DNA from: Escherichia coli
GTDB lineage: Bacteria; Pseudomonadota; Gammaproteobacteria; Enterobacterales; Enterobacteriaceae
DNA length: 64,000 bases
Assembly: GCF_050920415.1 (NCBI RefSeq)
Contig: NZ_CP169309.1
Strand: one strand, 5' to 3'
Part shown: in pieces, positions 4,153 to 48,457 of the stretch
Layout of the letters: the number at the start of each line of letters is the position of its first letter
Numbering within the stretch: the stretch's first letter is position 1
The notes under the pieces: generated by a model
The model's input: the letters and a program-made list of their open reading frames with translations, nothing else
The model's database searches: none
Told to the model about the DNA's origin: nothing
Made by a program: the position numbers and the translations under genes

Positions 4153-5015
4153 GCTTAGTCAGCCGTTGTCTCCGGGTGTCGCGTGCGCAGTTGCACGTCA
4201 TTCTCAGACGAACCGATGACTGGATGGATGGCCGCCGCAGTCGTCACACTGATGATACGGATGTGCTTCTCCGTATACACCATGTTATCGGAGAGCTGCC
4301 CACGTATGGTTATCGTCGGGTATGGGCGCTGCTTCGCAGACAGGCAGAACTTGATGGTATGCCTGCGATCAATGCCAAACGTGTTTACCGGATCATGCGC
4401 CAGAATGCGCTGTTGCTTGAGCGAAAACCTGCTGTACCGCCATCGAAACGGGCACATACAGGCAGAGTGGCCGTGAAAGAAAGCAATCAGCGATGGTGCT
4501 CTGACGGGTTCGAGTTCTGCTGTGATAACGGAGAGAGACTGCGTGTCACGTTCGCGCTGGACTGCTGTGATCGTGAGGCACTGCACTGGGCGGTGACTAC
4601 TGGCGGCTTCAACAGTGAAACAGTACAGGACGTCATGCTGGGAGCGGTGGAACGCCGCTTCGGCAACGATCTTCCGTCGTCTCCAGTGGAGTGGCTGACG
4701 GATAATGGTTCATGCTACCGGGCTAATGAAACACGCCAGTTCGCCCGGATGTTGGGACTTGAACCGAAGAACACGGCGGTGCGGAGTCCGGAGAGTAACG
4801 GAATAGCAGAGAGCTTCGTGAAAACGATAAAGCGTGACTACATCAGTATCATGCCCAAACCAGACGGGTTAACGGCAGCAAAGAACCTTGCAGAGGCGTT
4901 CGAGCATTATAACGAATGGCATCCGCATAGTGCGCTGGGTTATCGCTCGCCACGGGAATATCTGCGGCAGCGGGCTTGTAATGGGTTAAGTGATAACAGA
5001 TGTCTGGAAATATAG
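4110..5015 (+). CDS. insD: IS2 transposase OrfB (InsD), DDE integrase-like
   Basis: 301-aa ORF overlapping insC in the -1 frame; sequence ...[50 protein letters not shown]... recognised as IS2 InsD. Confidence 0.9.
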
Positions 5016-7048: not shown

Positions 7049-7189
7049 ATGATTGCTTTTATTCTTGTTGTGTTTGCGCTTGTTGCACTTGGCGTTATGA
7101 ACCGTAAATGTATCATTGACGATGGCGAATTTGCTGTTGCAGTTATTTTGATATTATCTGGTGTAGCAGGATACATAGGCTTGTCATAA
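7049..7189 (+). CDS. Hypothetical small hydrophobic peptide (46 aa, two predicted hydrophobic segments)
   Basis: ATG at 7049 preceded by AAGGATGAG 4-10 nt upstream; translation MIAFILVVFALVALGVMNRKCIIDDGEFAVAVILILSGVAGYIGLS; stop TAA 7187-7189; followed by palindromes and a terminator. Too short for the ORF track. Confidence 0.35.
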   Translation: MIAFILVVFALVALGVMNRKCIIDDGEFAVAVILILSGVAGYIGLS

Positions 7190-7209
7190 CGTGAGTGTGA
7201 CATGTCACA

Positions 7210-7233
7210 GGCCGCTTTCGCGGCCTTTTCTTT
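7210..7233 (+). terminator. Rho-independent terminator (GGCCGC-TTTC-GCGGCC followed by TTTTCTTT)
   Basis: 6-bp GC stem with 4-nt loop followed by a T-run on the + strand; preceded by the perfect palindrome TGTGACATGTCACA (7196-7209). Overlaps the stop codon of the convergent minus-strand ORF. Confidence 0.5.
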
Positions 7234-7489
7234 ATGTGGTTTGTTTTCGTAGTTGTTCGGCACAATAGTCGAGATGTGTTTGCAGATCCTGCATAGACAT
7301 CTGTGAGCTGGTGACGTAGTTAATCAGTGCAGTCAGTTCGGCAAGTGGGCCATCGACATTAAATCCATCCTTATCGAGATCCCGGAGTAATTTCATCAAG
7401 TGCGATCCTTCCACCAGTGACCTGACGCCTCCCGGCGTGTGAATCCTTTCGGTAAATCCCTCTTCCAGTGGATAGTGATACTGCTGCAT
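7232..7489 (-). CDS. Hypothetical small acidic protein (85 aa from the ATG at 7489) behind a LexA box
   Basis: ORF track gives 7232..7507 from a TTG; a better start is the ATG at 7489 (MQQYHYPLEEGF...) with GGAGAAG 7 nt upstream. A strong LexA box lies about 20 nt upstream. No family recognised by eye. Confidence 0.5.
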   Translation of the reverse strand: MQQYHYPLEEGFTERIHTPGGVRSLVEGSHLMKLLRDLDKDGFNVDGPLAELTALINYVTSSQMSMQDLQTHLDYCAEQLRKQTT

Positions 7490-7508
7490 CTTATCTTCTC
7501 CATGCAAT

Positions 7509-7528
7509 AACTGTATGTTTATACAGTA
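7509..7528. promoter_or_regulatory. LexA (SOS) box AACTGTATGTTTATACAGTA
   Basis: CTGT-N8-ACAG with an AT-rich spacer, 17/20 match to the E. coli consensus TACTGTATATATATACAGTA; sits in the divergent region between the small minus-strand ORF and the tailspike gene. Confidence 0.6.
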
Positions 7529-7684
7529 TCAAATAATTTGTTTGCTATCCAGCACGTTTTGCGAATCACCTGAAAGGTAATATCTGCTCACATTAACACT
7601 CTTTCCATCCATATATGGTTTTTCAGGTAATAGAATAACCAGATATGCGGCGCAACGGGTGCTGCGACTATCTGGAGATTTAAC

Positions 7685-9940
7685 ATGACGGTCTCAACCG
7701 AAGTTGACCACAACGAATACACAGGCAATGGCGTTACGACTTCATTCCCTTATACCTTTAGGGTTTTCAAGGAATCTGATCTGGTAGTGCAGGTGGTTGA
7801 CCTTGACGAAAATATCGCTGTGCTGGCTCTGGATACTGATTACACTGTCACTGGGGCTGGTGGATATAACGGCGGTAATGTAATTCTGTCGAAGGCGTTA
7901 GCTAACGGTTACCAGATTTCTATATCACGAGAGCTCCCGGTTACGCAGGAAACTGATTTGCGTAATCAGGGGAAGTTCTTTGCAGAAGTGCATGAGGATG
8001 CTTTTGATAAGCTAACGATGCTGATCCAGCAGGTTCGAAGTTGGTTTAGCTTGGCGCTGCGCAAGCCGTCATTCGTGGCAAATTATTATAACGCGCTGAA
8101 CAACTATATTCGAAACCTGAAAGACCCGGTAAACCCGCAGGATGCATCCACAAAGAATTATGTGGACAGTACGGTTTTATCGAATATCGACCATACAATC
8201 CGTGTTCCTGATTCTTATATCGATCCGCTGCCACCTCTCGCTCAACTTGAAGGAAGCATAATCGGCATCGCCAACGGTAAGCCCGTTCCGTTCCCTGTGC
8301 CTTCAGGAACGGCGGCTGACGTATTCAACCAGTTGGCCAGCAGCGCTGACGGGAAAGGTGATGCGCTGATAACAGTGAAGCAGCCTTACCAGGGGGCAAT
8401 TTCTCTTTCGCAGCATATAAAAAATGCACAAGCCATTAGTGTTGTTGATTTTGGAGCGACAATTGATGGAACGCTTCACCCTTTAAGCGAGATATTTTCA
8501 ACACTATCAGCTGCTCAGATGGTATATCCATTTGTTTCATCTCTATCTCAATCTGTTGATTATGCTGCGCTTCAGTCCGCATGTAACACGGGAAAAACAG
8601 TGCTTATTCCAAAGGGAACTGGTTACTATAATTCAACTATTTTTCTGAAAAACTCCGTTAGGATTGTTGGAGAGGGAACTGATACAATAAATAGAGCGCA
8701 ATCATTTATGTCTATTGTTGGTAATATTTCAGCCTTTGCTTTAGATCAAGGTGATTCCCTATCGACAAAAATGATTCAGATTTTTATTGATGGTCTTTAT
8801 ATTTTCTATGATCCAGGAACCACACCAACGAATCCTGAAAATGATGGTGGGAAAATTGCATTTAATTTCTACTCGACAATTCCAAATTCAACAAGCTTGG
8901 AAATGTCTGAAATTAAAAACTGTACAGTTCATGGTGCATGGTCATGCTTTAATGATCAGACTGGCACATACTTGACAAAACTTACGAATGTGTGGGCCAG
9001 AAACTGCCATAATGGTTTTACAAAAGGAACTGGCACTACCATTCTGATGGAAAGATGTTATACATCTGGATGTATATCACCATATCAGTTTGGTTCTGTC
9101 TTTGCAGCTACAATGATTAACTGTGCCATGGATGGATCAAATATTTCGTTAAACGCAGGTTCGCTTGGTGGGGCTGGCGTTCATGTTCTTAACACACATA
9201 GTTTTAACATTATTGGTTTTGATGCGGAGGGTAACACCATCTCTACAGATGGTTATGGAGAGGCAGCACTATTCCATTTCGAAAATAGTAGTGGTGGCAT
9301 TTCTGGCCTGACTGCACATCAGAACAGCATGCGAAGTGTTGCGCCAAGTGATGCTGGTGTAGTTTCCTACATCAGGGCGTCAGGTAGCAGCGATGTTAAA
9401 ATTGAGTCATCAGAAGATGATTTATCTGACACCAACACAGTTGCATATACTGGGTCTGGGTATCCCATCATGCTACATGCAACTGACACAGCTAAAATAA
9501 GCGTCTTTAATAGCAGATTCAGGGCGACTACCACTGGTACCCCTGTCTTAAGTACGCTAAGTACTGGTGATGTATCATGGTATGACTGCCCTAAAAAAAC
9601 AGGACTTATCGTAGATGGTTATTCACAAATAACATCTAAGGAAGGATTGCAAACATCATGCTTCTATACCAGTAAAGGCTCTACTGCTGTTGCTGAAAAT
9701 ACTCCGACAACACTTTTCTCTCTACCAGATTCGCAAGGTACTTACATTATTAGCGTATGGGTGGCTGGAAGCGGAGAAAATTACGCATCTACACAACTGG
9801 CAATGTATGATGGAGATAAGCTAATTCTTGTTGCGTTAAAAATAGCAGCATTTCTTAGTTTTTCAGCAACAGGGAGAATTGTAACCATTACAAGCCAGGT
9901 GGCAGGCACTTTAAACTGGACTTACACTAAAATAGGTTGA
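7685..9940 (+). CDS. Phage tailspike / tail fibre (751 aa), probable O-polysaccharide-specific receptor-binding protein
   Basis: N-terminus MTVSTEVDHNEYTGNGVTTSFPYTFRVF... has the Y-x-G-x-G...F...F signature of podovirus tail-fibre/tailspike particle-binding domains; from memory it resembles epsilon15/phiV10-type tailspikes (unverified). The C-terminal two thirds are visibly AT-rich and Ser/Thr/Asn/Gly-rich, consistent with a beta-helical receptor-binding domain. Confidence 0.75.
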   Translation: MTVSTEVDHNEYTGNGVTTSFPYTFRVFKESDLVVQVVDLDENIAVLALDTDYTVTGAGGYNGGNVILSKALANGYQISISRELPVTQETDLRNQGKFFAEVHEDAFDKLTMLIQQVRSWFSLALRKPSFVANYYNALNNYIRNLKDPVNPQDASTKNYVDSTVLSNIDHTIRVPDSYIDPLPPLAQLEGSIIGIANGKPVPFPVPSGTAADVFNQLASSADGKGDALITVKQPYQGAISLSQHIKNAQAISVVDFGATIDGTLHPLSEIFSTLSAAQMVYPFVSSLSQSVDYAALQSACNTGKTVLIPKGTGYYNSTIFLKNSVRIVGEGTDTINRAQSFMSIVGNISAFALDQGDSLSTKMIQIFIDGLYIFYDPGTTPTNPENDGGKIAFNFYSTIPNSTSLEMSEIKNCTVHGAWSCFNDQTGTYLTKLTNVWARNCHNGFTKGTGTTILMERCYTSGCISPYQFGSVFAATMINCAMDGSNISLNAGSLGGAGVHVLNTHSFNIIGFDAEGNTISTDGYGEAALFHFENSSGGISGLTAHQNSMRSVAPSDAGVVSYIRASGSSDVKIESSEDDLSDTNTVAYTGSGYPIMLHATDTAKISVFNSRFRATTTGTPVLSTLSTGDVSWYDCPKKTGLIVDGYSQITSKEGLQTSCFYTSKGSTAVAENTPTTLFSLPDSQGTYIISVWVAGSGENYASTQLAMYDGDKLILVALKIAAFLSFSATGRIVTITSQVAGTLNWTYTKIG

Positions 9941-9975
9941 TGTTATGCGTGGGGAGCAATGCTCCCCATCATCAA

Positions 9976-11835
9976 TTAAAAAATAAATGGCTTGTCATTT
10001 TTTAATTTTTTCCCAAACTCCCTTGAGCCTTCTAGAGTGAAATGACTATTATCAAAGTAAAGATAATCACCTTTAGTAGAAAGGATGTCACAATTCATTG
10101 ACTTTCCGCACTGCTCGGCAAGCGTATCTATGTATTTATACGAATGCTGGTTGCTACCAAGATAGCCTTTTATCGTATTGTTAATTTCAACTCTACTATT
10201 GTCATAATACTTTTTAGAGTATTTATTTATCCCATCAACTGTGTTTACGCCAGATTTAAAAGCAGACTTAATTATTTCCATTGGCTGTGCCGTAAACTTC
10301 ATCTTAGGCCCAAATACAATAACTTCTCCTTTAGTCCTCTCCTGTATTTTGCCTATAGAGTAAAGCATCCCGAACAGATCGCCAACGCCATAATCATCAT
10401 GAAGGATTATAATGTTAGCTTCAGCTATGGCTGGAGATGAGATTACGTCATTGAATATTTTTTTGCACTTTTCTACATAGGGCATGTCGTTTGGTGTATA
10501 ACCAAAGTTTGAACATAAGTTTGTAGTTCTTATATAAGTTATATCACCCTTCATCCCATTTTCAGTAAGTGCATAAGTCAGATCTATGCCATGAGAATTA
10601 CCGATTATTACTATTTTTTTGTCACCTGTCTTCGGTACAGGGTGAGGCTTGTCTCCATCAACCCAATACCTGTTCATTTGTTCTTTTAGCTGTTCGGACG
10701 TCATTGTGGCAAACGAAAACCTTGATGGAATTCCAGATAGCAATAGTACAGCGAAGCACAAACCAACTACACCACCTACAGGTAGCACGATTGAAGTTAA
10801 TTCATTCAAGGACCTGCCGTTTTTAAATTTTGAAAGTGCCTTTCTTGAAGGGTTTTCAATTAAATAAAATGATGCGGCACCAATAAGAATTGATAAGGCA
10901 ACACCTGATACTGTATAAACCATATCATCCATCTTATTCATTGACATATATACAACTATGGGCCAGTGAACCAGATATACCGAGTATGAAATTTTCCCAA
11001 CCCATTGAGATAATGCATTATCAAGTAATAGGTTATCTTTACATCCAAGATAAATGACAAAGAAAGTAGAAACGACTGGTATTAAGGCAAGATACCCAGG
11101 CCACTTCATTAAGCTGTTAAGCAAGACTATCCCCGATACTGCAAAGGCTATGGCAATCCATCTAAATACAGCAGTGCGTTTTGAATTTTGTATAGTAGGA
11201 AGAAGGTAGGCAAGGCCGCCAGCCAGCATCTCCCAAGCTCTGCTTGACAGAAGATAAAATGCAGCGCCCTGATTATTATAAGAAAGATACACTGAGGCAG
11301 TAAATGATATAATTGCAAGGATGGCAACAACATACCTTATATGCTTAGCGCCCAATAGCTTTGCAATCACCATCATTATGATTGGATATACCATGTAAAA
11401 CTGCCACTCTACAGAAAGCGACCATGTATGAAGAAGCCATTTCTGCTTTGATGCAGTATCAAAATAATCAATGCTATGGTAATACTCAACGTTTGAGAAA
11501 AATAAAAGGCTACTTCTTACGTGTTGAGCCAGGTATTCATATTCAGAAGGTAAAAGAATGAAGTAACCAACTATCAGAACAGCAACTGAAACTACAGTTA
11601 AAGCAGGTATAATTCTTCTTGCCCTATCAAGATAAAATCCTAACAGTGAAAAGTTTCCATTAGATATCTTTGTGTAAATTATTCCAGTCATCAGATACCC
11701 TGATATAACAAAGAATATATCTACGCCTGAAAATCCACCAGAGAACCCTTTGACTCCGAAGTGATAAAGGACAACTGCCATAACAGCAATAGCCCTAAGC
11801 CCGCCTATATCTGTTCTGTATTTTAAAGAAGACAT
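9976..11835 (-). CDS. Membrane acyltransferase-3 family protein with C-terminal SGNH-like domain; probable O-antigen acetyltransferase (OafA/Oac-like)
   Basis: 619 aa; N-terminal R-x10-H motif (RTDIGGLRAIAVMAVVLYH) and about 10 hydrophobic helices typical of acyltransferase-3; C-terminal soluble domain with a GNSH block. Strongly AT-rich gene, convergent with the tailspike. Confidence 0.8.
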   Translation of the reverse strand: MSSLKYRTDIGGLRAIAVMAVVLYHFGVKGFSGGFSGVDIFFVISGYLMTGIIYTKISNGNFSLLGFYLDRARRIIPALTVVSVAVLIVGYFILLPSEYEYLAQHVRSSLLFFSNVEYYHSIDYFDTASKQKWLLHTWSLSVEWQFYMVYPIIMMVIAKLLGAKHIRYVVAILAIISFTASVYLSYNNQGAAFYLLSSRAWEMLAGGLAYLLPTIQNSKRTAVFRWIAIAFAVSGIVLLNSLMKWPGYLALIPVVSTFFVIYLGCKDNLLLDNALSQWVGKISYSVYLVHWPIVVYMSMNKMDDMVYTVSGVALSILIGAASFYLIENPSRKALSKFKNGRSLNELTSIVLPVGGVVGLCFAVLLLSGIPSRFSFATMTSEQLKEQMNRYWVDGDKPHPVPKTGDKKIVIIGNSHGIDLTYALTENGMKGDITYIRTTNLCSNFGYTPNDMPYVEKCKKIFNDVISSPAIAEANIIILHDDYGVGDLFGMLYSIGKIQERTKGEVIVFGPKMKFTAQPMEIIKSAFKSGVNTVDGINKYSKKYYDNSRVEINNTIKGYLGSNQHSYKYIDTLAEQCGKSMNCDILSTKGDYLYFDNSHFTLEGSREFGKKLKNDKPFIF

Positions 11836-11982
11836 AATCGCTATCGTTTTGAGTAAGATGCATTAATGATATCACCTTTAGGGTAATTTCGTTAAGAGTT
11901 ATCCGATCAAATTTAATCCACATATGGTTTATTGTGTATGATGAACTCACCAACTAAGGGGGTTCTTTATGCACAATAAACG

Positions 11983-12396
11983 GTGGTCACTATGGCGCAT
12001 GTGCTGACAACAGAGTCAGTAAATCAGGGGTTAAGCCTGACTGCACTGGCGTCCGTGTTCGTTGGTATACCGCCTGAGGTGGCTTTAGGTGCTCTTGCTG
12101 GTGCGGTAATTTTTGTTACCTCAGCGGTTGAGTATCCGATAAAGCGTAGGTTGCTCCTGGCGCTCCTAAGCTTCCTCTGCGGCGTTCTCTTCTATAAAGC
12201 GACAGCTTCCATTCTGATTGGCTTTGCCAGCCTGATACCAACGATTACGCAGGACTCTTTTGAGAAGGGCATTGTGTATTCCGCCGGGGCATTCGTGTCT
12301 GCAATCGTCGCTGTTCGCATTGGCATCTGGCTGTATCACCGTTCTGAAAATCCGCGCGACATGATCCCGGGGAGAAAAGACGATGACCAGTCCTGA
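11983..12396 (+). CDS. Putative holin (137 aa multi-span membrane protein)
   Basis: First gene of a + strand cluster ending in endolysin and Rz/Rz1; several hydrophobic helices and a charged C-terminus; two closely spaced in-frame Met codons (MVTMAHV). Holin call is positional. Confidence 0.5.
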   Translation: MVTMAHVLTTESVNQGLSLTALASVFVGIPPEVALGALAGAVIFVTSAVEYPIKRRLLLALLSFLCGVLFYKATASILIGFASLIPTITQDSFEKGIVYSAGAFVSAIVAVRIGIWLYHRSENPRDMIPGRKDDDQS

Positions 12397-12676
12397 TCTG
12401 CTTCTCATCCTTAACGCCGCTATCTGCGGTGGCATTGCAATCCGAGTGCTTCTGTTCCGCCGTGACGGGTCACGTCACCGCTGGTGGGGTGGGTGGCTCG
12501 CCTATCTGCTGATCGTCGTGGCAGCCAGCGTACCTATCCGGACTTTCTACGGGTACTACGTCAGCGCCGACTGGTCAGAAGTCATCATCAAAGCCGTGTT
12601 CCTGGCTGCGCTCATCAAGACAAAAGGGAACGTGGTGCAAATTTTCAAGATAACGAGGTCCCAGCATGGACATTAA
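12383..12676 (+). CDS. Putative second holin/antiholin-like membrane protein (97 aa)
   Basis: Overlaps the end of the previous ORF and the start of the endolysin gene; two or three hydrophobic segments; basic C-terminus. Confidence 0.45.
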   Translation: MTSPDLLLILNAAICGGIAIRVLLFRRDGSRHRWWGGWLAYLLIVVAASVPIRTFYGYYVSADWSEVIIKAVFLAALIKTKGNVVQIFKITRSQHGH

Positions 12677-13295
12677 CCAATTCCAGCGTGCAGCTGGCAT
12701 CAGTGAGGTGCTGGCCGCGCGCTGGTACCTGCATATCACCGCAGCCATGAAAGAGTTTGGCATCGAGCAACCGCTGCACCAGGCGATGTTTATCGCGCAG
12801 GTGGGGCATGAGTCTACTGGTTTCACCCGGCTGCAGGAAAACTTCAACTACAGCGTTGCAGGGCTCGCAGGATTCGTCCGCGCCGGGCGACTTACTCAGG
12901 GTCAGGCCAACGCGCTGGGCCGCCGTGCTGGCGAGCCATCGTTACCGCTGGAGCGCCAGCGCGCGATCGCCAATCTGGCGTACAGCAAACGCATGGGGAA
13001 CAATGCCCCTGGTGATGGCTGGAATTACCGTGGCCGCGGACTTATCCAGATTACCGGTTTGAATAACTATCGTGATTGCGGAAACGTCCTGAAAGTGGAC
13101 CTGCTGGAGAATCCTGAACTGTTGGCGCAGGACGAATATGCGGCTCGTAGCGCGGCGTGGTTCTTCGCCAGCAAAGGATGCATGAAGTATACCGGCGATA
13201 TTGCACGTGTAACTCTGATTATCAATGGTGGCCGGAACGGCATCGACGACCGGCGCGCGCGGTACATCACTGCCAGTAAGGTGCTGGCGGTATGA
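12666..13295 (+). CDS. Endolysin, glycoside hydrolase family 19 (chitinase-like lysozyme)
   Basis: 209 aa; motif FIAQVGHESTGF...NYRGRGLIQITG typical of GH19-type phage endolysins; position between holin-like genes and Rz. Confidence 0.85.
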   Translation: MDINQFQRAAGISEVLAARWYLHITAAMKEFGIEQPLHQAMFIAQVGHESTGFTRLQENFNYSVAGLAGFVRAGRLTQGQANALGRRAGEPSLPLERQRAIANLAYSKRMGNNAPGDGWNYRGRGLIQITGLNNYRDCGNVLKVDLLENPELLAQDEYAARSAAWFFASKGCMKYTGDIARVTLIINGGRNGIDDRRARYITASKVLAV

Positions 13296-13774
13296 TCTGG
13301 GCATTCGCAAAAGCATACTGGAAACAGTTGCTTATCGTGGTGATGCTTGCTGTTCTGGTCATATCGGGAATTGTTTCCTGGAATGTACACGGCAGTCGTC
13401 AGTACGATGCCGGGTATGCGCAGGCGAAGGAAGACCGCAAAGCTGAAGATGAGATAGTTCGTCAGCACTACGAACAGGAGAAATCGATCAATGAACGTGA
13501 AGCGCAGCAGAGGATCGACCAGGCGCGCAATGATGCTCTTGATGCTGCCGCTCGCGCTGGCCGGTTGCAGCAACAACTCTTTGCCATCCGTGAGCAGCTC
13601 AGGCAGTATAACGCCATTGTCGGCGCTGGGACGTCAGCCGCAGACACCGGAGTTTTGCTTGCCGACGTGCTCAGCAAATCTCTCGAGAGAAACAGACAAC
13701 TGGCAGAGTATGCTGACCGGGCAGCCGAAGCCGGAAGAGTCTGCGAAAAACAATACGACACCCTGACCAGATAG
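13292..13774 (+). CDS. Rz-like inner-membrane spanin (i-spanin)
   Basis: 160 aa; N-terminal transmembrane helix followed by coiled-coil-prone Q/R/E/A-rich periplasmic domain; ATGA overlap with the endolysin stop; contains an embedded +1 frame lipoprotein ORF. Confidence 0.75.
   Translation: MIWAFAKAYWKQLLIVVMLAVLVISGIVSWNVHGSRQYDAGYAQAKEDRKAEDEIVRQHYEQEKSINEREAQQRIDQARNDALDAAARAGRLQQQLFAIREQLRQYNAIVGAGTSAADTGVLLADVLSKSLERNRQLAEYADRAAEAGRVCEKQYDTLTR
13530..13766 (+). CDS. Rz1-like outer-membrane lipoprotein spanin (o-spanin), embedded in Rz
   Basis: +1 frame ORF wholly inside Rz; from ATG at 13530 the product MMLLMLPLALAGCS... has a signal peptide with lipobox LAGC and a Pro-rich mature part. 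ORF track starts it further upstream at 13491. Confidence 0.7.
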   Translation: MMLLMLPLALAGCSNNSLPSVSSSGSITPLSALGRQPQTPEFCLPTCSANLSRETDNWQSMLTGQPKPEESAKNNTTP

Positions 13775-13884
13775 CATGGCATTTTTCATGGTACTGATTT
13801 CCGGTGACGGTATATAAAACGGTACTAGAAAAATGAAGTTTTGGAAAAATGTTATCACTCAATTGGTTATGATTGTCGTAAATA

Positions 13885-15567: not shown

Positions 15568-17042
15568 AAAAGGTTCCTTGAAGTATGTCCCACGCCGTGG
15601 ACGGTACTTACATTAAGGCACAACAGGACAAAATGGTCAATTCTTCGTTATGTAAAAAAGCGTCAGTGGATACATATTTTAATGTTATGGAAGTTAATTT
15701 AATTATTTACAATGATGATGTAATAATGATGAATTAACATGATAAACGTAATAATTCATTAATCAGGGTTATTTTGTTTGATATATATCAATTGGAACTT
15801 TCATATGACACTTAGAATCAATGCTCTCTATAGTGATGAATAATCATCATTCGAAGTCAGGTGGGATGCCTGTCTGAATACACCTCCTTCAGGATGTGGG
15901 GGATTCTGCTGAGCATCTATGAAACTGAATGCAACCTATATAAAAATACGTGATAAATGGTGGGGGCTTCCGCTGTTCCTGCCTTCTTTAATCTTGCCCA
16001 TTTTCGCCCATATTAATACTTTCGCGCATATTTCTTCCGGTGAGGTTTTTCTCTTTTACCTGCCTTTGGCACTGATGATCAGCATGATGATGTTTTTCAG
16101 CTGGGCGGCATTGCCAGGGATCGCCTTAGGGATTTTTGTTCGCAAATATGCAGAGCTGGGTATTTACGAAACGCTCTCATTAACAGCTAATTTTATTATC
16201 ATTATCATTCTCTGTTGGGGCGGTTACAGGGTCTTTACTCCCCGGCGTAACAACGTTTCACATGGTGATACCCGTTTAATTGCCCAGCGTATATTCTGGC
16301 AGATTGTATTTCCTGCAACGCTGTTTCTAATACTTTTCCAATTTGCTGCGTTTGTTGGATTACTGGCGAGCAGAGAAAATCTGGTCGGCGTCATGCCCTT
16401 TAACCTCGGGACCTTAATCAATTATCAGGCCTTGCTGGTAGGTAATCTGATTGGTGTCCCGCTGTGCTATTTCATCATTCGGGTGGTGCGAAATCCGTTT
16501 TATTTACGCAGCTATTATTCGCAATTAAAACAGCAAGTTGATGTCAAAGTCACCAAAAAAGAGTTCGCGCTCTGGCTACTGGCATTAGGTGCGTTGTTGT
16601 TGCTGTTATGCATGCCGTTAAATGAAAAAAGCACGATTTTCAGCACCAATTATACCTTGTCATTATTGCTACCCCTGATGATGTGGGGAGCCATGCGCTA
16701 TGGTTATAAGTTGATTTCGCTGCTCTGGGCGGTCGTGCTGATGATTAGCATCCACAGCTATCAAAATTACATTCCCATTTATCCTGGCTATACCACGCAA
16801 CTGACCATAACCTCCTCCAGTTATCTGGTATTCTCTTTTATTGTCAATTATATGGCTGTACTGGCAACCCGTCAGCGAGCGGTAGTCAGACGCATTCAGC
16901 GGCTTGCGTATGTGGACCCGGTGGTTCATCTGCCAAATGTTCGCGCCCTGAATCGCGCGTTGCGTGATGCCCCCTGGTCTGCGCTTTGTTATTTACGCAT
17001 TGAACCGCCCCGGGTTTCCTGGAGAGTGTTTTATCTGTGAAC

Positions 17043-17930
17043 TCAGGCTGCCAGATCATTGTTTCCGATGGAAGCATAATAAGCTTTTTCTGCTTCTGCC
17101 GGAGGAGTATGGCCCAGCCTTCCCAGCAATCGTCGATTGTTATACCAGTCCACCCACGTGAGTGTGGCCAGTTCCACTTCTGCACGGTTTTTCCAGCTCT
17201 TACGGTGTATTACCTCCGCTTTGTAAAGACCATTGATGCTCTCAGCCATCGCGTTGTCATACGAGTCGCCTGTACTCCCTGTTGATGCCAGCAGTTTTGC
17301 TTCTTTTAGTCGCTCCGTATAGGCCAGTGACACATACTGAGAGCCTTTATCGCTGTGATGGATGGTGCCAGACGGACGACGGGCCCACAACGCCTGCTCC
17401 AGCGCATCCAGCACGAATGTCGTTTCCATAGACGATGAGACCCGCCACCCCACGATGTATCCGGCAAACACATCAATGATGAACGCCACATAGACGAAGC
17501 CCTGCCATGTGCTGACGTAAGTAAAATCAGCCACCCACAGCTGGTCAGGACGTTCTGCCACGAACTGACGGTTTACGCGGTCACCTGTGGCAACGGTTTT
17601 CCGGCTGACGGTAGTGCGGACCTTTTTACCCCGGAGAACACCGGCAAGTCCCATAACCGCCATGAGGCGCGCCACTGTACATCTGGCCACCCTGATTCCT
17701 TCCCGTAACAACTGACGCCAGACTTTACGCACACCGTACACCTGATGATTTTCATCGTATACGCGCTGTATCTCTCTCTTCAGCCAGTCATCGCGCTGCG
17801 CACGGGCACTGCGTTTATCAGGATGATGCCGCTGCTGCTGACAATGGTAATACGTTGACGGGGCAATATGCAGTTCACTGCATACCGGTCCGACCCCGTA
17901 CTGCTCACGCAGCTTATCCAGCAGTGGCAT
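17043..17930 (-). CDS. IS3-family transposase OrfB (DDE integrase domain)
   Basis: 295 aa; ...HSDKGSQYVSLAYTERLKEAKLLASTGSTGDSYDNAMAESINGLYKAEVIHRKSW... typical IS3-family OrfB. Confidence 0.9.
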   Translation of the reverse strand: MPLLDKLREQYGVGPVCSELHIAPSTYYHCQQQRHHPDKRSARAQRDDWLKREIQRVYDENHQVYGVRKVWRQLLREGIRVARCTVARLMAVMGLAGVLRGKKVRTTVSRKTVATGDRVNRQFVAERPDQLWVADFTYVSTWQGFVYVAFIIDVFAGYIVGWRVSSSMETTFVLDALEQALWARRPSGTIHHSDKGSQYVSLAYTERLKEAKLLASTGSTGDSYDNAMAESINGLYKAEVIHRKSWKNRAEVELATLTWVDWYNNRRLLGRLGHTPPAEAEKAYYASIGNNDLAA

Positions 17931-18256
17931 TATTTTTTCCAGAGGCGGTCGAACTCCGCCTTCGCAAAATAAGCGGAAGCCTGGCGAAGGATATCGTTAC
18001 TGCGGCGCAGTTCACGATTTTCACGTTCCAGCTCTTTCAGACGCTGACGTTCAGCGGTGGTGAGCCCACCATCACCGCTCCCGGTATCCCTCTCATGCTG
18101 GCGAACCCAGACACGCAGAGTCTCTGGCGTACAGCCAATCTTTGGAGCAATGGAACAAATTGCCGCCCATTGTGAGTCATATTCGCCCTGACTTTCCAGA
18201 ACCATACGAACTGCGCGTTGACGGACTTCGGGGGAAAAACGAGTATTTTTAGTCAT
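17930..18256 (-). CDS. IS3-family transposase OrfA (helix-turn-helix, leucine zipper)
   Basis: 108 aa [57 protein letters not shown]...; ends in an A6 run (plus-strand T6 around 17933-17938) at the OrfA/OrfB junction, the likely frameshift window. Confidence 0.9.
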
Positions 18257-19480
18257 CCTGTTTACCTCTTTCTCAGGAAGTTTAGTCTCCAGGATTTCCG
18301 GGGCGGTTCACATCCCCGGCATGGAAATGCTGGTTAAGAACTATGGCATCATGCTACGGATTCAATACAAGCAAAAACTTTCTCACTGGCTGTCACCATT
18401 GCTGGAACCGGGTGAAGATGTTTATCAGCTTTCGGGTAACGATCTCGCGCTGCGACTGAATACAGAAGCGCACCAGGAGCGCATTACCGCACTGGATAGC
18501 CATCTCAAGCAATTTCGTTTCTTTTGGGATGGAATGCCGATGCAACCGCAGATTGGCGTCAGTTACTGCTATGTGCGCTCGCCAGTGAATCATATCTACT
18601 TACTGCTGGGAGAGCTAAATACGGTTGCTGAACTCTCCATCGTGACCAACGCCCCGGAAAATATGCAGCGTCGCGGGGCAATGTATTTGCAACGCGAATT
18701 GAAAGATAAAGTCGCGATGATGAATCGGCTACAGCAGGCGCTGGAACACAACCATTTTTTCCTGATGGCCCAGCCGATTACCGGTATGCGTGGTGATGTC
18801 TACCATGAGATCCTTCTGCGCATGAAAGGTGATAATGATGAACTGATCAGCCCCGACAGCTTCTTGCCGGTCGCGCACGAATTTGGTTTATCGTCGAGTA
18901 TCGACATGTGGGTCATTGAGCATACGCTGCAATTTATGGCTGAAAACAGAGCGAAGATGCCCGCTCACCGTTTTGCTATTAATCTGTCGCCAACCTCGGT
19001 ATGTCAGGCTCGTTTTCCATTTGAAGTCAGTCAGTTGCTGGCTAAATATCAAATTGAAGCGTGGCAACTTATTTTTGAAGTCACCGAAAGTAATGCTCTG
19101 ACCAATGTTAAGCAGGCGCAGATCACCTTGCAGCATCTTCAGGAATTAGGCTGCCAGATTGCGATTGATGATTTCGGAACCGGCTACGCCAGCTATGCAC
19201 GGCTTAAAAATGTGAATGCCGATCTGCTTAAAATTGACGGCAGTTTTATCCGCAATATTGTGTCAAATAGTCTGGATTATCAGATAGTGGCGTCGATTTG
19301 CCACCTGGCGCGAATGAAGAAAATGCTGGTAGTGGCAGAGTACGTTGAAAACGAAGAGATCCGCGAGGCGGTGCTCTCTTTGGGGATCGATTATATGCAG
19401 GGTTATCTTATTGGTAAGCCGCAACCGTTAATTGATACGCTGAATGAAATCGAACCCATTCGCGAAAGTGCCTGAATAAT

Positions 19481-23297: not shown

Positions 23298-23935
23298 TTA
23301 CTCGTCGGCAGCGTAGCCCTGCGGCGGCAGACGTTGACCATCCAGCCACGCGGCGTTTTCGTGCATTTTCAGACGACCATCGGCAAACCAGCTAATCACC
23401 AGTGGATAAATAGCGTGTTCCTGGGTTTGCACGCGGGCGGTGATGTCATCCTCCGTATCACCAGCAAATACCGGGACTTTCGCCTGTAAAATAACCGGGC
23501 CACCGTCCAGTTCATCGGTGACGAAATGCACCGATGTACCGTGCTCTTCATCGCCATTTTCCAGCGCCTGACGATGGGTGTGTAATCCGGGATATTTCGG
23601 CAGCAGAGAAGGGTGAATATTCAGCAAACGCCCGGCATAGTGGGAGACAAACGCCGGGCTGAGAATGCGCATAAAACCAGCCAGCACGACCACATCGGGT
23701 GCGTACATGTCGATTTCATGAATCAACTCCCGGTCATAGGCTTCACGACTGTCAAACGCGCTGGCGATGAGCGTATGGGTAGCAATACCCGCCTGGCGGG
23801 CGCGTTCAAGGCCGAACGCGTCGGCCTTATTGCTGAAAACTGCCCGTAGGGTGCCTTTAATTTTGTTGGCTTTGCAGGCGTCAATTATTGCCTGCAAATT
23901 ACTTCCGTTGCCGGAAATAAGCACCACAATATTCA

Positions 23936-23936
<1 letters not shown>
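23298..23936 (-). CDS. purN: Phosphoribosylglycinamide formyltransferase 1
   Basis: 212 aa MNIVVLISGNGSNLQAIIDACK...; overlaps the purM stop by 1 nt. Confidence 0.95.
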
Positions 23937-24991
<1,055 letters not shown>

Positions 24992-25036
24992 TTACTTGCG
25001 GTAGAAAAATAAAATTCGGCGCAATTCTAACAGGGA

Positions 25037-25052
25037 AAGCAAACGTTTGCGA
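25037..25052. promoter_or_regulatory. PurR operator (PUR box) AAGCAAACGTTTGCGA upstream of purMN
   Basis: Palindrome GCAAACGTTTGC matching the PurR box consensus, 64 nt upstream of the purM GTG. Confidence 0.7.
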
Positions 25053-25249
25053 GACTGCTTTACACAACCTTTTTGCACTTCATTTTCCCAAGCGCGCGGC
25101 GAAAGAATAGCTGCACCGTGGCAAAGGAGAGTTTTTGGATGGAATAATATTCTTTCATAACCACATGAATATAAAGTAACTTTATCTAAAACCGTTATCA
25201 TTTTGACTAAAGTCAACGAAAATAATATTGCCGCCTTGAAGAAAGGAGG

Positions 25250-25270
25250 TATAATCCGTCGATTTTTTTT
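25250..25270 (+). promoter_or_regulatory. upp promoter -10 (TATAAT) and T8 initiation tract (UTP-sensitive start-site selection / reiterative transcription)
   Basis: TATAAT at 25250-25255 followed by CCGTCGATTTTTTTTG; matches the arrangement described for the E. coli upp-uraA promoter. Confidence 0.55.
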
Positions 25271-25297
25271 GTGGCTGCCCCTCAAAGGAGAAAGAGT

Positions 25298-25924
25298 ATG
25301 AAGATCGTGGAAGTCAAACACCCACTCGTCAAACACAAGCTGGGACTGATGCGTGAGCAAGATATCAGCACCAAGCGCTTTCGCGAACTCGCTTCCGAAG
25401 TGGGTAGCCTGCTGACTTACGAAGCGACCGCCGACCTCGAAACGGAAAAAGTAACTATCGAAGGCTGGAACGGCCCGGTAGAAATCGACCAGATCAAAGG
25501 TAAGAAAATTACCGTTGTGCCAATTCTGCGTGCGGGTCTGGGGATGATGGACGGTGTGCTGGAAAACGTTCCGAGCGCGCGCATCAGCGTCGTCGGTATG
25601 TACCGTAATGAAGAAACGCTGGAGCCGGTACCGTACTTCCAGAAACTGGTTTCTAACATCGATGAGCGTATGGCGCTGATCGTTGACCCAATGCTGGCAA
25701 CCGGTGGTTCCGTTATCGCGACCATCGACCTGCTGAAAAAAGCGGGCTGCAGCAGCATCAAAGTTCTGGTGCTGGTAGCTGCGCCAGAAGGTATCGCAGC
25801 GCTGGAAAAAGCGCACCCGGACGTCGAACTGTATACTGCATCGATTGACCAGGGACTGAACGAGCACGGATACATTATTCCGGGCCTCGGCGATGCCGGT
25901 GACAAAATCTTTGGTACGAAATAA
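25298..25924 (+). CDS. upp: Uracil phosphoribosyltransferase
   Basis: 208 aa from ATG at 25298 ([20 protein letters not shown]...); GGAG RBS 8 nt upstream; ORF track is extended 9 codons. Confidence 0.95.
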
Positions 25925-25940
25925 AGAATAAAAATAATTA

Positions 25941-25969
25941 AAGCCGACTTTAAGAGTCGGCTTTTTTTT
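25941..25969 (+). terminator. Intrinsic terminator/attenuator between upp and uraA (AAGCCGACT-TTAAG-AGTCGGCTT + T8)
   Basis: 9-bp stem and 5-nt loop followed by TTTTTTTT, 17 nt after the upp stop. Confidence 0.6.
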
Positions 25970-26009
25970 GAGTAAAGCGCCTATAACACATAATACAGAG
26001 GATAATACT

Positions 26010-27299
26010 ATGACGCGCCGTGCTATCGGGGTGAGTGAAAGACCGCCACTTTTACAGACAATCCCGCTTAGTTTGCAACATTTGTTCGCCATGTTTGGTG
26101 CAACCGTCCTGGTGCCCGTCTTATTTCATATTAACCCGGCGACTGTACTGTTATTTAACGGTATAGGAACGCTGCTGTATCTCTTCATCTGTAAAGGGAA
26201 AATCCCGGCTTATCTTGGTTCCAGCTTTGCCTTTATTTCACCGGTATTGTTACTGTTGCCGTTAGGGTATGAAGTCGCGCTGGGCGGCTTTATTATGTGC
26301 GGCGTGCTGTTCTGCCTGGTTTCTTTTATCGTGAAGAAAGCGGGGACCGGCTGGCTGGACGTGCTGTTTCCACCTGCGGCAATGGGCGCAATCGTTGCCG
26401 TCATCGGTCTGGAGTTGGCGGGCGTAGCTGCCGGTATGGCAGGTTTACTCCCGGCTGAAGGGCAAACGCCAGACTCCAAAACCATCATCATCTCCATTAC
26501 CACGCTGGCAGTCACGGTTTTAGGTTCCGTGCTGTTTCGTGGTTTCCTGGCAATTATCCCGATTTTAATTGGTGTGCTGGTAGGGTATGCGCTCTCTTTC
26601 GCAATGGGGATTGTCGATACCACGCCGATTATTAACGCCCACTGGTTTGCGCTGCCAACTCTCTATACGCCGCGCTTCGAGTGGTTTGCCATTCTGACTA
26701 TTCTGCCAGCGGCGTTAGTGGTTATTGCCGAACACGTAGGGCACCTGGTAGTAACGGCTAATATCGTCAAAAAAGATCTGCTGCGCGATCCAGGTCTGCA
26801 CCGTTCGATGTTTGCTAACGGCTTGTCGACCGTGATCTCCGGCTTCTTTGGCTCCACGCCAAATACTACCTACGGGGAAAACATTGGCGTGATGGCGATC
26901 ACCCGTGTTTACAGTACCTGGGTTATCGGCGGGGCGGCGATTTTCGCTATCCTGCTTTCCTGCGTCGGTAAACTGGCTGCTGCTATCCAGATGATCCCAT
27001 TGCCGGTGATGGGCGGCGTTTCGCTGCTGCTTTATGGTGTTATCGGTGCTTCCGGTATTCGTGTTTTGATCGAATCGAAAGTGGATTACAACAAAGCACA
27101 GAACCTGATCCTGACTTCCGTGATTTTGATCATCGGTGTCAGTGGTGCCAAGGTAAACATTGGCGCGGCGGAGCTGAAAGGTATGGCGCTGGCGACCATC
27201 GTCGGTATCGGCTTAAGTTTGATCTTCAAACTGATTAGTGTGCTGCGCCCTGAAGAAGTGGTGCTGGACGCAGAAGACGCGGATATAACAGACAAATAA
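26010..27299 (+). CDS. uraA: Uracil:proton symporter (NCS2 family)
   Basis: 429 aa from ATG at 26010 ([36 protein letters not shown]...); ORF track is extended 14 codons. Confidence 0.95.
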
Positions 27300-30256: not shown

Positions 30257-31318
30257 ATGCTCGAAATGTTGATGCAATGGTATCGCCGCCGTTTTAGTGA
30301 CCCGGAAGCGATTGCCTTGCTGGTTATTTTAGTTGCCGGATTTGGCATTATCTTTTTCTTTAGCGGCCTACTCGCACCGTTGCTGGTGGCGATTGTGCTG
30401 GCCTATTTACTGGAATGGCCAACCGTGCGGCTACAATCAATAGGCTGCTCCCGACGCTGGGCGACGTCGATTGTATTGGTCGTTTTCGTCGGTATTTTGC
30501 TGCTGATGGCGTTCGTGGTAATGCCTATCGCCTGGCAACAGGGCATCTACTTAATCCGCGATATGCCGGGGATGCTCAATAAGCTCTCTGATTTTGCCGC
30601 CACGTTGCCGCGCCGCTATCCGGCGTTAATGGATGCGGGGATTATTGATGCAATGGCCGAAAATATGCGCAGCCGGATGCTCACCATGGGCGATTCGGTG
30701 GTGAAAATTTCCCTCGCCTCGCTGGTCGGTTTGCTGACCATTGCCGTCTATCTGGTGCTGGTACCATTGATGGTCTTCTTCCTGCTGAAAGACAAAGAGC
30801 AGATGCTGAACGCCGTTCGCCGGGTGCTGCCGCGTAACCGTGGACTGGCAGGACAGGTGTGGAAGGAGATGAATCAACAAATCACCAACTATATCCGCGG
30901 CAAAGTGCTGGAGATGATCGTGGTGGGGATTGCCACCTGGCTGGGATTCTTACTCTTCGGGCTGAACTATTCGCTGCTGCTGGCGGTGCTGGTCGGCTTC
31001 TCGGTACTTATTCCGTACATTGGTGCATTTGTGGTGACCATTCCGGTGGTTGGCGTGGCGCTATTCCAGTTTGGTGCTGGCACGGAATTCTGGAGCTGCT
31101 TCGCGGTGTATCTGATCATTCAGGCGCTGGACGGCAACCTGTTAGTACCTGTGTTGTTCTCCGAAGCGGTTAACCTGCATCCGCTGGTCATTATTTTATC
31201 AGTAGTGATCTTCGGTGGTTTGTGGGGATTCTGGGGCGTATTCTTCGCCATTCCATTGGCGACGCTGATCAAAGCCGTGATTCACGCCTGGCCCGATGGG
31301 CAAATCGCGCAAGAATAA
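30257..31318 (+). CDS. perM: AI-2E family transporter PerM (YfgO)
   Basis: 353 aa polytopic membrane protein; matches E. coli perM position and length. Confidence 0.9.
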   Translation: MLEMLMQWYRRRFSDPEAIALLVILVAGFGIIFFFSGLLAPLLVAIVLAYLLEWPTVRLQSIGCSRRWATSIVLVVFVGILLLMAFVVMPIAWQQGIYLIRDMPGMLNKLSDFAATLPRRYPALMDAGIIDAMAENMRSRMLTMGDSVVKISLASLVGLLTIAVYLVLVPLMVFFLLKDKEQMLNAVRRVLPRNRGLAGQVWKEMNQQITNYIRGKVLEMIVVGIATWLGFLLFGLNYSLLLAVLVGFSVLIPYIGAFVVTIPVVGVALFQFGAGTEFWSCFAVYLIIQALDGNLLVPVLFSEAVNLHPLVIILSVVIFGGLWGFWGVFFAIPLATLIKAVIHAWPDGQIAQE

Positions 31319-39934: not shown

Positions 39935-41374
39935 TTACTGCAACCAGGTCGCGGCGAATACGCTGGAAATCAGCGACATCACAATCAGTACAATCAACAC
40001 CAGGCGCATTGATCCTGGCAGCGGTGCGGCATCAGCGACGGCCTCGCTCGGTTTGCCAGGCACAACGCGACCAAACCAGCGAATAAACCAGGCGAAACTG
40101 GCAATCGATTCAATCATCAGCAGAATCATGGCGGGCAGCAGGATCCAGTACTCCACTGACAACGAAAAACCGGCAGCAAACAGTGGGAATTTACTGAAGA
40201 AGCCGTTGAACGGCGGCACGCCAGTAATCGCCAGCGCGGCCACGCAGAAACCCACGCCTGGCAACGGCAGGGTGTGCAATACGCCACGCAGACGCGGCAA
40301 CAAGCGCGTGCCGCAGCTGTAACTCAGCGCACCGGCTACAAGGAAAAACAGGCTTTTAGCGAACGCGTGGTTGACGATGTAGGCGATGCTGCCCTCCAGT
40401 GCCAGCCGCGAGCCGAAGATGGAGAGCGACAAGCCGAAGAACATCCAGCCAAGTTGAGTGATGGTCGACCAGGCCAGCAACCGCTTCATATCCTGCTGCG
40501 GCAAATACATCAGGAAGCCGTAAAGAATGGTGACCAGTGCCATGACCATGCCAACGCCGCCAATCACATGCGGGATATTGCCGCCGTCGATAATGGCGCG
40601 GGCAAAAATGTAAACGCCCACTTTCACCATCGATGCGGCGTGGAGATAGGCGCTGATCGGTGTTGGCGCTTCCATTGCATCCGGTAGCCACGCTTGCATC
40701 GGTAGCTGGGCCGATTTCCCCCACGCGGCAAACAGGATGCCACCATAAACCAGATAGCGTGCGTCGCCGTGTAACTCGCTCATCGCGCTAAGCGCAAACG
40801 TTCCGGTCTGCAAAAACAGCGTGGCGGCGGCAAGATACAACCCCAGCGAACCGATATGAGTGATAAGTAACGCTTTTAGTGCTGAACGTTGCGCTTTATC
40901 GCTCTGGTAATAACTGATCAACGCCCAGGAGCAGCCGCCCGTAATTTCAAAAAACAACAACTGACCGAGCAGCGTCGAGGAGAGTACCAGTCCCGCCATC
41001 GCGCCGATAAAAACCAGCAAAAATGCGTAATAACGATTCGTGCCGTTATGCGGGTGTTCGCGATTTTTATCCGTCAGATAACCCGTGGAGTAGATCGTGA
41101 CCAGCAAACCGAGGAACACCACCACAAACAGAATCAGCGTACTCACGCGATCAATGATCAGGCCAAACAACGCCACATCCCCCACGTTGACCAACGTCAA
41201 CGTGACGGCAACTTTATCGGCCTGATAAAACGCGGAGATCAGCGACAACATGCACAGCGTGGTCAGCGCGGCGAACAAAATCCCCCATTCGGCGGCCCGA
41301 CGTTGTGGCGAAAACGAAACGACCAGTGCGCCGATAAAAGGCAGCAATAACGTCGTCAGAGCAAGATTTTCCAT
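39935..41374 (-). CDS. hyfD: Hydrogenase-4 membrane subunit D (NuoM-like)
   Basis: 479 aa polytopic antiporter-like protein. Confidence 0.9.
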   Translation of the reverse strand: MENLALTTLLLPFIGALVVSFSPQRRAAEWGILFAALTTLCMLSLISAFYQADKVAVTLTLVNVGDVALFGLIIDRVSTLILFVVVFLGLLVTIYSTGYLTDKNREHPHNGTNRYYAFLLVFIGAMAGLVLSSTLLGQLLFFEITGGCSWALISYYQSDKAQRSALKALLITHIGSLGLYLAAATLFLQTGTFALSAMSELHGDARYLVYGGILFAAWGKSAQLPMQAWLPDAMEAPTPISAYLHAASMVKVGVYIFARAIIDGGNIPHVIGGVGMVMALVTILYGFLMYLPQQDMKRLLAWSTITQLGWMFFGLSLSIFGSRLALEGSIAYIVNHAFAKSLFFLVAGALSYSCGTRLLPRLRGVLHTLPLPGVGFCVAALAITGVPPFNGFFSKFPLFAAGFSLSVEYWILLPAMILLMIESIASFAWFIRWFGRVVPGKPSEAVADAAPLPGSMRLVLIVLIVMSLISSVFAATWLQ

Positions 41375-48397: not shown

Positions 48398-48413
48398 ACG
48401 CAAACGTGTGCGT
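48398..48413. promoter_or_regulatory. PurR operator (PUR box) ACGCAAACGTGTGCGT upstream of purC
   Basis: 15/16 match to the palindromic PUR box consensus ACGCAAACGTTTGCGT; lies about 150 nt upstream of purC. Confidence 0.65.
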
Positions 48414-48457
48414 CGGCAGAAAAATGCGATTTTGGCGGTAATTCGCACGAAATTTGT

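Follow-up and report, generated by a model that had tools for sequence, protein, structure and literature searches.

Does the intergenic region between the divergent genes purM and upp, in this Escherichia coli chromosome, hold the purine and pyrimidine control sites of K-12, or has it departed from them? The stretch of DNA that was analysed (64,000 nucleotides, referred to throughout as the window) was compared with K-12 MG1655, with a sample of 5,426 complete E. coli genomes, and with orthologous loci from other Enterobacterales, and we hold with high confidence that the region is the ordinary, already characterised purMN / upp-uraA control region of E. coli; no feature of the sequence speaks against this. 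The first-pass annotation of this DNA had described it as that divergent control region; the gene assignment was correct, all of the sequences quoted there were found at the positions given for them, and the comparison with the K-12 promoters, once run, aligned every named site without a mismatch. Everything in that finding is already known from K-12. The presence, position, K-12 identity and conservation of each site were observed directly, as set out below.

Positions 13885-64000 of the window are E. coli chromosome and run opposite to K-12 MG1655 (collinear with 2,630,972 to 2,582,173), at ~97% identity and with the same gene order, and strain MFDS1022581 was 100% identical to the window over every compared stretch. 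The end of a phiV10-like prophage occupies positions 1-13884, and pdeF is interrupted by a 1310-bp IS3-family element at 17001-18310.

The purM coding sequence (23936-24973, minus strand, from the open reading frame list, with a GTG start at 24973) is equal in length to K-12 purM, has one amino-acid difference from it, is labelled purM in MFDS1022581, and is followed by purN (23298-23936, minus strand). On the other side, upp (25298-25924, plus strand, ATG at 25298) encodes a uracil phosphoribosyltransferase of 208 amino acids that has no amino-acid difference from K-12 and occurs as the exact protein, with the Pfam domain UPRTase, in public genomes, and uraA (26010-27299, plus strand, labelled uraA in the annotation) encodes a uracil permease of 429 amino acids, likewise with no difference from K-12. 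The intergenic region flanked by the two divergent genes purM and upp is 324 bp long, and the purM and upp transcription starts lie ~244 bp apart. A search with Rfam at gathering thresholds gave no match in this intergenic region. A 366-codon open reading frame antisense to upp, running through the intergenic region, closes earlier in K-12 and was treated as a shadow ORF; its tail appears as a 69-aa hypothetical protein in one strain's annotation.

The purM promoter core lies on the minus strand at 25017-25029, with the -10 element TAGAAT running from 25029 to 25024 and a 44-nt leader, and its transcription start would, going by the literature, be the G at 25017. This start, and with it the placement of the PurR operator at -20 to -35, was derived from the FNR centre of Grainger et al. 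2007, which is -192.5 from the purM start. The operator itself (PUR box, 25037-25052, minus strand) reads TCGCAAACGTTTGCTT on the purM strand, contains GCAAACGTTTGC at 25039-25050, and is separated by 7 nt from the -10 TAGAAT downstream of it. It has one mismatch to ANGCAAACGTTTNCNT, a 16-bp imperfect palindrome with a central CG, as has the box at 48398-48413, and both are located at the promoter or upstream region of a purine gene (purM and purC, respectively), a placement in which the repressor, once bound, could hinder RNA polymerase. In K-12, the purM-purN and purC boxes are the exact motifs under PurR ChIP-chip peaks (PMC3159470, Table 1), and both peaks were strongly adenine-dependent (PMC3159470). 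PurR belongs to the LacI family of repressors, and its gene, purR, is located outside the window. The PurR operator that had been proposed on the purM side was recovered at 25037-25052, identical to K-12 and to the ChIP-chip motif.

Compared with the K-12 purMN promoter, the box TCGCAAACGTTTGCTT, the 7-nt gap to TAGAAT, the leader, and the start codon agree base for base, and no difference falls in this functional block, whereas from 25079 on the rare allele of the window differs at 20/110 positions. According to reviews, PurR represses purMN when it carries hypoxanthine or guanine, by blocking RNA polymerase there. By extension from this K-12 literature, PurR loaded with hypoxanthine or guanine would bind the 16-bp PUR box of purM here, and, bound over ~-20 to -35, would block RNA polymerase at the purM promoter.

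The purC operator (48398-48413, minus strand, ACGCACACGTTTGCGT) lies 153 nt upstream of the purC ATG at 48567 and directly past the bamC terminator, ACGCAAACGTGTGCGT being the sequence found at these positions. A second PUR box had been reported upstream of purC, and it was confirmed at this position as identical to K-12 and equal to the ChIP-chip motif. It shares with the K-12 purC operator both the sequence ACGCACACGTTTGCGT and the context downstream of the bamC terminator, and differs from the K-12 purC region by five substitutions in the leader past the box and by four within the REP-like palindrome between box and purC. PurR may block initiation at this box in the same way as at purM, if the K-12 literature carries over.

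For a matrix scan of the whole window, a PurR weight matrix was built from 25 ChIP motifs of Cho et al. 2011 (PMC3159470, Table 1), from which the three mapping to the window were excluded; the training sites score 11.5 to 24.8 bits. Highest in the 64 kb was the purC box at 18.4 bits, followed by a site inside uraA at 17.8 bits and then by the purM box at 16.6 bits, so that the scan that had been suggested as a check on the two operators placed them first and third. The fourth was 40792-40807 (14.0 bits), and the fifth (13.9 bits) was the third published PurR ChIP motif, CCGGAAGCGATTGCCT, at 30302-30317 on the plus strand, which lies in the yfgO/bepA intergenic region and is an exact match to Cho 2011 Table 1. 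These scores bear on whether the quoted motifs could be chance matches without regulatory meaning in this genome, since short palindromes do arise by chance, and a single match of at least 16.6 bits was found in 14.5% of shuffled 64-kb windows. However, such sites numbered 0.155 per shuffled window on average, and the three matches of at least 16.6 bits that the window holds were equalled in 0/1000 shuffles; the sites are also identical to experimentally bound K-12 sites at the expected promoters, and are conserved well beyond neutral expectation, both within E. coli and across genera. The chance reading was rejected on these four grounds (shuffles, K-12 identity, promoter placement, and conservation), and we give it a negligible probability.

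The upp sigma-70 promoter (25228-25255, plus strand) consists of the -35 element TTGCCG, a 16-bp spacer, and the -10 element TATAAT at 25250-25255; it matched 10/12 positions in a promoter scan and is identical to K-12. The -10 is followed by CCGTC, G, A, T8, and G, and the resulting sequence at 25250-25271, TATAATCCGTCGATTTTTTTTG, occurs once in the window and in 0/100 shuffles. The initially transcribed region (GATTTTTTTTG, 25261-25271, plus strand) comprises the starts G6 at 25261 and A7 at 25262 and the T8 tract at 25263-25270, and is also identical to K-12, with the T-run at its full 8 residues. One public K-12-like assembly has T7 at this run, possibly a homopolymer sequencing error. The K-12 upp promoter has the same arrangement TTGCCG-16-TATAAT-CCGTC-GATTTTTTTTG, as well as the same 37-nt leader and ribosome-binding site, and the one difference is a substitution at 25223, which falls between the -35 and the FNR box and 75 bp ahead of the ATG.

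With its -10 and a purine start ahead of a long T run, upp has the sequence features of the UTP-sensitive start-site class, to which codBA and pyrBI also belong. At upp, the alternative starts are reportedly G6 and A7, with UTP-sensitive selection between them coupled to reiterative transcription, and a long T.A tract is said, by the title of one study, to be required for regulation. Control of upp by UTP-stimulated start-site switching and non-productive reiterative initiation is described in PMC12709180, and papers on these subjects cite Tu & Turnbough 1997 and Cheng et al. 2001. The combination of TATAAT and T8 to which this mode of control had been attributed was found at 25250-25271 as in K-12, and the mechanism is as the literature describes it. 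For K-12 upp, AUUUn ladder transcripts at high UTP and a move to the G start at low UTP are described. If this strain behaves as K-12 does, RNA polymerase would begin the upp transcript at G 25261 or A 25262. At high UTP, the A start would be favoured, and the AUUU transcript would slip on the T8 tract and be released before upp; at low UTP, the G start would lead into normal elongation, and upp-uraA expression would rise under pyrimidine limitation.

A published FNR site that the first-pass annotation did not contain lies upstream of this promoter, as the FNR-type palindrome TTGACTAAAGTCAA at 25203-25216, centred at -51.5 relative to the G start of upp. It has 8/10 consensus positions of TTGAT-N4-ATCAA, and is identical to the K-12 FNR ChIP-chip motif. 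Grainger et al. 2007 (PMC1802558) list upp/purM as an FNR ChIP-chip target with the motif at -51.5/-192.5, and Liu et al. 2011 (PMC3266220), who reported plasmid titration effects that were gone once the FNR site was deleted, put the site at -61.5 (PMC3266220). Counting from G 25261 gives a centre of -51.5, in agreement with Grainger 2007 and not with Liu et al.

Conservation of these blocks was measured against K-12, against the 5,426 E. coli genomes, and across genera. Against K-12, no differences were found in 24974-25078, one in 25189-25297, and none in the upp-uraA spacer, whereas 7.8% of four-fold-degenerate sites differ when purM, purN, upp, and uraA are pooled; at a rate of 7.8%, the observed changes (0/105, 1/109, and 0/85) have probabilities of 2e-4, 1.5e-3, and 1e-3, respectively. 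Within the E. coli sample, 24974-25078 was matched at an identity of at least 99% in 5,424/5,424 matching genomes, and 25189-25297 at an identity of at least 99% in 4,516 genomes and of 95-99% in 908.

Across genera, the orthologous loci compared were those of Salmonella, Citrobacter koseri, Enterobacter, Klebsiella, Cronobacter, Jejubacter, Serratia, Yersinia, and Pantoea, together with the loci L028 and L029. The pattern TATAAT, 5 nt, GA, and T6-T9 was present in 12/12 Enterobacterales loci, the window counted among them. The FNR-type box, as TTGATnnnnNTCAA, was found equally far from the -10 in 10/11 other taxa, with a perfect consensus in L028 and Cronobacter; Pantoea is without it. On the purM side, the pattern TCGCAAACG(T/A)TTGC(T/C)T, 7 nt, and TAGAAT was kept wherever purM is the divergent neighbour (8 taxa), and a PUR box was found upstream of upp only in taxa with purM as the neighbour. 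In C. koseri, Enterobacter, Klebsiella, and L028, a gene for a family-1 glycosyl hydrolase replaces purM, and the upp promoter and FNR-type box remain. Because of these taxa with a glycosyl hydrolase gene as the neighbour, the upp promoter and FNR-type box were assigned to upp, and the PUR box to purM.

The same comparison bears on a second reading of the PUR box, in which this one site between the divergent genes serves both operons and PurR represses the upp promoter as well. The upp gene is reportedly among the predicted members of the PurR regulon. The same standing was predicted for uraA (Ravcheev et al. 2002), which was PurR-dependent in arrays, and the PurR ChIP-chip peak in K-12 (2,618,847-2,619,484 in an older K-12 numbering) extends across the entire intergenic region and over the 5' end of upp (PMC3159470). 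However, the box is 209-224 bp upstream of the upp start, distant from the upp -35 and -10, and the four taxa in which purM is replaced (C. koseri, Enterobacter, Klebsiella, and L028) have a best PurR score upstream of upp of no more than 12.0 bits, compared with at least 16.5 bits for every purM box, while their upp promoter is otherwise conserved. Control of both operons from the one box is on this evidence very improbable, and a PUR box serving purM, beside a upp promoter with its own FNR-type box, is the reading that was retained.

Between the two promoters lies a variable central spacer (25079-25188) at which the window carries a rare allele, with 20/110 differences from K-12, the densest cluster of mismatches to K-12 in the surrounding 9.8 kb. 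Over 25066-25150, this allele was matched at an identity of at least 95% in 12/5,426 genomes and at 80-90% in 5,403, with none between. A second divergent tract was found inside purM (~24380-24600) and is common to only 2-3 genomes, and the ~480 bp between the two tracts is ~1% divergent. A single neutral divergent haplotype extending over purM and the spacer was rejected on this pattern, the tracts being separate and short and differing in genome counts (2-3 compared with 12). The two-tract pattern looks like mosaic import of short tracts, and 25079-25188 was read as an unconstrained spacer with an imported or old allele.

A donor for the central allele was sought by a 21-mer scan of 100,044 species-representative genomes, which returned one dissimilar contig, a chance match; no paralogous copy of the central spacer was found in any E. 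coli genome, and the common allele was present in all of 10 additional public loci that encode this Upp protein. Two candidate features in the variable patch were rejected. A hairpin would depend on the K-12 pairing GTCTT...AAGAC, which is uncompensated in the allele of the window, and a 34-codon open reading frame is open in both the window and K-12 but differs at 11/34 residues, which indicates no selection at the protein level. In principle, inputs from upstream could be changed by the rare allele of the spacer, where no factor is known to bind. The core segment had been called unrearranged in the first-pass annotation, and this stands for gene order, with the insertion in pdeF, the prophage at 1-13884, and the rare mid-intergenic allele as departures from it.

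Downstream of upp, between its stop at 25924 and the uraA ATG at 26010, lies a hairpin resembling an intrinsic terminator (25940-25969, plus strand), consisting of AAAGCCGACTT-TAA-GAGTCGGCTTT followed by a T-run to 25969, with the stem GCCGACT/AGTCGGC extended by A/U pairs around the loop TAA. In a terminator scan, it has an 11-pair stem with 5 G-C pairs, a 3-nt loop, and a T-run, which are the features of an intrinsic terminator, and it folds with a minimum free energy of -16.7 kcal/mol (z = -2.9). The 85-nt upp-uraA spacer, hairpin included, has no differences from K-12. The 3' arm AGTCGGC and the T-run were found in 12/12 taxa, and the 5' arm GCCGACT in all but Pantoea (GCCGGCC, reported as a one-base change), while the loops vary.

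A hairpin attenuator had been claimed at this position; the hairpin is present at 25940-25969, but the label of attenuator over-reads what is a canonical intrinsic terminator, kept also in the Pantoea locus. Regulated attenuation would mean that read-through into uraA follows a signal, such as the UTP level acting on the U-tract, beyond a constitutive leak. The genes upp and uraA are reportedly a bicistronic operon, which places the hairpin inside a transcription unit. Its tail is a long T8, and its stem, near-invariant in 12 taxa, shows no covariation, a sign that more than simple pairing may be under constraint. In addition, uraA expression changed 17.6-fold with adenine and 2-fold when purR was deleted, and upp is unmentioned in the main text of that study (PMC3159470). 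Against attenuation, no competing antiterminator pairing or leader peptide was evident in a fold of the 85-nt spacer, Pantoea keeps the hairpin though no uraA is called downstream of its upp, and in Serratia and L029 the ~200 nt from hairpin to uraA leave room for a separate uraA promoter. Neither the sequence analysis nor the literature found gave evidence for regulated read-through at the hairpin, and an E. coli 3'-end mapping paper has no upp or uraA entry in the supplements examined. We regard a regulated attenuator as improbable. Since the hairpin is kept in the Pantoea locus without a uraA called downstream, it was taken to act as the upp terminator, most likely an intrinsic terminator with leak-through into uraA, and as such it probably lowers transcription into uraA.

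The second-ranked site of the matrix scan is a PurR-like box, ACGGCAACGATTGCGC, at 26386-26401 on the minus strand, within uraA at nt 377-392 (17.8 bits), and is considered a candidate only. It is 15/16 identical to the yieG ChIP motif, and has the same sequence in K-12 and in 10 more E. coli loci. In the 11 taxa compared, the 14-residue peptide encoded at the box is invariant in 11/11, and the box itself was kept exactly, at synonymous sites, only in E. coli, Salmonella, C. koseri, and L028, being absent in 7 taxa with the same peptide, including Klebsiella, Enterobacter, Cronobacter, Serratia, and Yersinia. When the uraA genes of E. coli and Salmonella are compared, their longest identical run (42 nt) is centred on the box, compared with a gene-wide difference at 42% of third positions. 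Windows of 16 nt invariant in the four taxa numbered 12/1275, the uraA box among them, and a match as strong as the box was found by chance in ~5% of shuffled windows.

Such a box could be a working PurR operator that acts as a roadblock, as at purB, and would place uracil uptake under PurR in E. coli, Salmonella, and Citrobacter without involvement of the upp promoter; going by sequence, we consider this possible but doubtful. As in the purB intragenic PurR operator, a strong PurR-type palindrome lies within a gene, a few hundred nt past its start codon, and the published PurR effect on uraA is likewise small (~2-fold). Cho et al. found uraA to be down 17.6-fold with adenine and 2-fold in a PurR-dependent manner, with no binding site assigned (PMC3159470), and uraA is a predicted PurR regulon member in other gamma-proteobacteria (Ravcheev et al. 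2002). In contrast to the purB operator, the uraA box is putative and was lost in Klebsiella, Enterobacter, Cronobacter, Serratia, and Yersinia; the K-12 PurR ChIP-chip study (PMC3159470) has no peak at it. If true, the proposal would extend a well-studied regulon by an operator inside a gene, and would explain the 2-fold array effect of PurR on uraA.

The footprint of the locus, both in E. coli and across the Enterobacterales, is one in which the promoter-proximal blocks and the upp terminator are conserved and the spacer between the promoters drifts freely. The chromosome in this part of the window is of the ordinary core kind. For this strain, binding of the proteins, the choice of start site, and reiterative transcription are expected from the K-12 literature on account of the shared sequence, and on that footing the strain would keep the textbook controls at purMN, purC, and upp-uraA, with PurR acting on the purine genes and UTP-sensitive reiterative transcription acting on the pyrimidine genes.

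Within the purM–upp intergenic region, the central spacer (25079–25188) differs from K-12 at 20 of 110 positions and is a rare allele: among 5,426 complete E. coli genomes, only 12 match it at 95% identity or more, and the remainder are at 80–90%. A second short hyper-divergent stretch, differing by about 10% from almost all E. coli, was found inside purM (24380–24600); when 24300–24600 was compared across E. coli genomes, identity was at least 99% in only two, 96.7% in one, and 90–95% in 5,422. PurM differs from its K-12 counterpart by just one residue, so the changes in this tract are nearly all synonymous. The purM tract looks like a short imported segment.

Further sequence differences in the region were observed in other E. 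coli. In one assembly (L020, GCA_003322745.1), which is otherwise 100% identical to K-12 over purM, upp, and uraA, the initially transcribed region of upp carries T7, versus T8 (25263–25270 in the window) in the others; the shorter run reflects either an error in sequencing the homopolymer or a genuine variant, for which weaker reiterative-transcription control would be expected. In strain Z0117EC0005 the FNR box is altered to TTGACTCAAATCAA, with both half-sites retained and one nearer to consensus, and in strain BY68 an 8-bp tandem duplication, TTTGCACG, lies immediately upstream of the PUR box region. Published positions of the FNR site (25203–25216 in the window) conflict: its upstream distance from the upp start is given as 61.5 nt by Liu et al. 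2011 (PMC3266220) and as 51.5 nt by Grainger et al. 2007 (PMC1802558). A direct count gave 51.5, agreeing with Grainger et al. and not with Liu et al. On the minus strand, a 366-codon open frame (24992–26092) runs antisense to upp and continues through the intergenic region. In strain E200086, RefSeq lists its tail as a hypothetical protein of 69 aa; the frame closes earlier in K-12, and it is probably a shadow ORF.

Beyond the operators at purM and purC, the PurR matrix matched a strong PurR-like box, ACGGCAACGATTGCGC, within uraA (26386–26401, nt 377–392 of the gene) at 17.8 bits, ranking second among matches across the window. The synonymous sites of this box are kept in E. coli, Salmonella, Citrobacter koseri, and a related taxon (L028), and are not kept in seven other taxa despite an identical peptide. 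Published PurR ChIP data report no peak at this box, and published arrays give a 2-fold PurR dependence of uraA (both PMC3159470). One more published PurR site, the window's third and absent from the first-pass annotation, is the ChIP-chip motif CCGGAAGCGATTGCCT in the yfgO/yfgC (bepA) intergenic region (30302–30317), unchanged from its published form (PMC3159470). The purC leader contains a REP-like palindrome (48455–48500), located after the PUR box and ahead of the purC start, with four substitutions relative to K-12, all in its central part. An Rfam match at 89 bits placed naRNA4 (CssrE), a family of REP-derived nucleoid-associated RNA, at 53127–53203 on the minus strand.

The first 13,884 nt (1–13884) contain no K-12-like core and show 94% identity over 64% of their length to Escherichia phage phiV10, an epsilon15-like phage; genes for a GH19 endolysin, a DUF2514 protein, an O-antigen acetyltransferase, and an IS3-family transposase were identified there. 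At 13885 this stretch adjoins the last 14 bp that remain of the 3' end of guaA, and strain MFDS1022581 has guaA, guaB, and xseA in its place. A separate IS3-family element of 1310 bp (17001–18310) interrupts pdeF, with terminal repeats starting TGAACCGCCCCGGG, a 3-bp target duplication (CAT), and a frameshift pseudoknot matching Rfam ALIL (17859–17975); it is missing in K-12 and in the otherwise identical MFDS1022581.

Across genera, the stem of the upp terminator (GCCGACT/AGTCGGC, 25943–25961) shows zero compensatory changes from Escherichia to Yersinia, its 3' arm being invariant in 12 of 12 taxa and its 5' arm differing by one base in Pantoea only, while the loop varies freely among orthologues. 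For the stem of a simple terminator, such sequence constraint is unusually rigid. In C. koseri, Enterobacter, Klebsiella, and the L028 taxon, the upp promoter, FNR-type box, and terminator are still present, and a family-1 glycosyl hydrolase gene replaces purM upstream of upp; the divergent purM/upp layout is therefore not universal in the Enterobacteriaceae.
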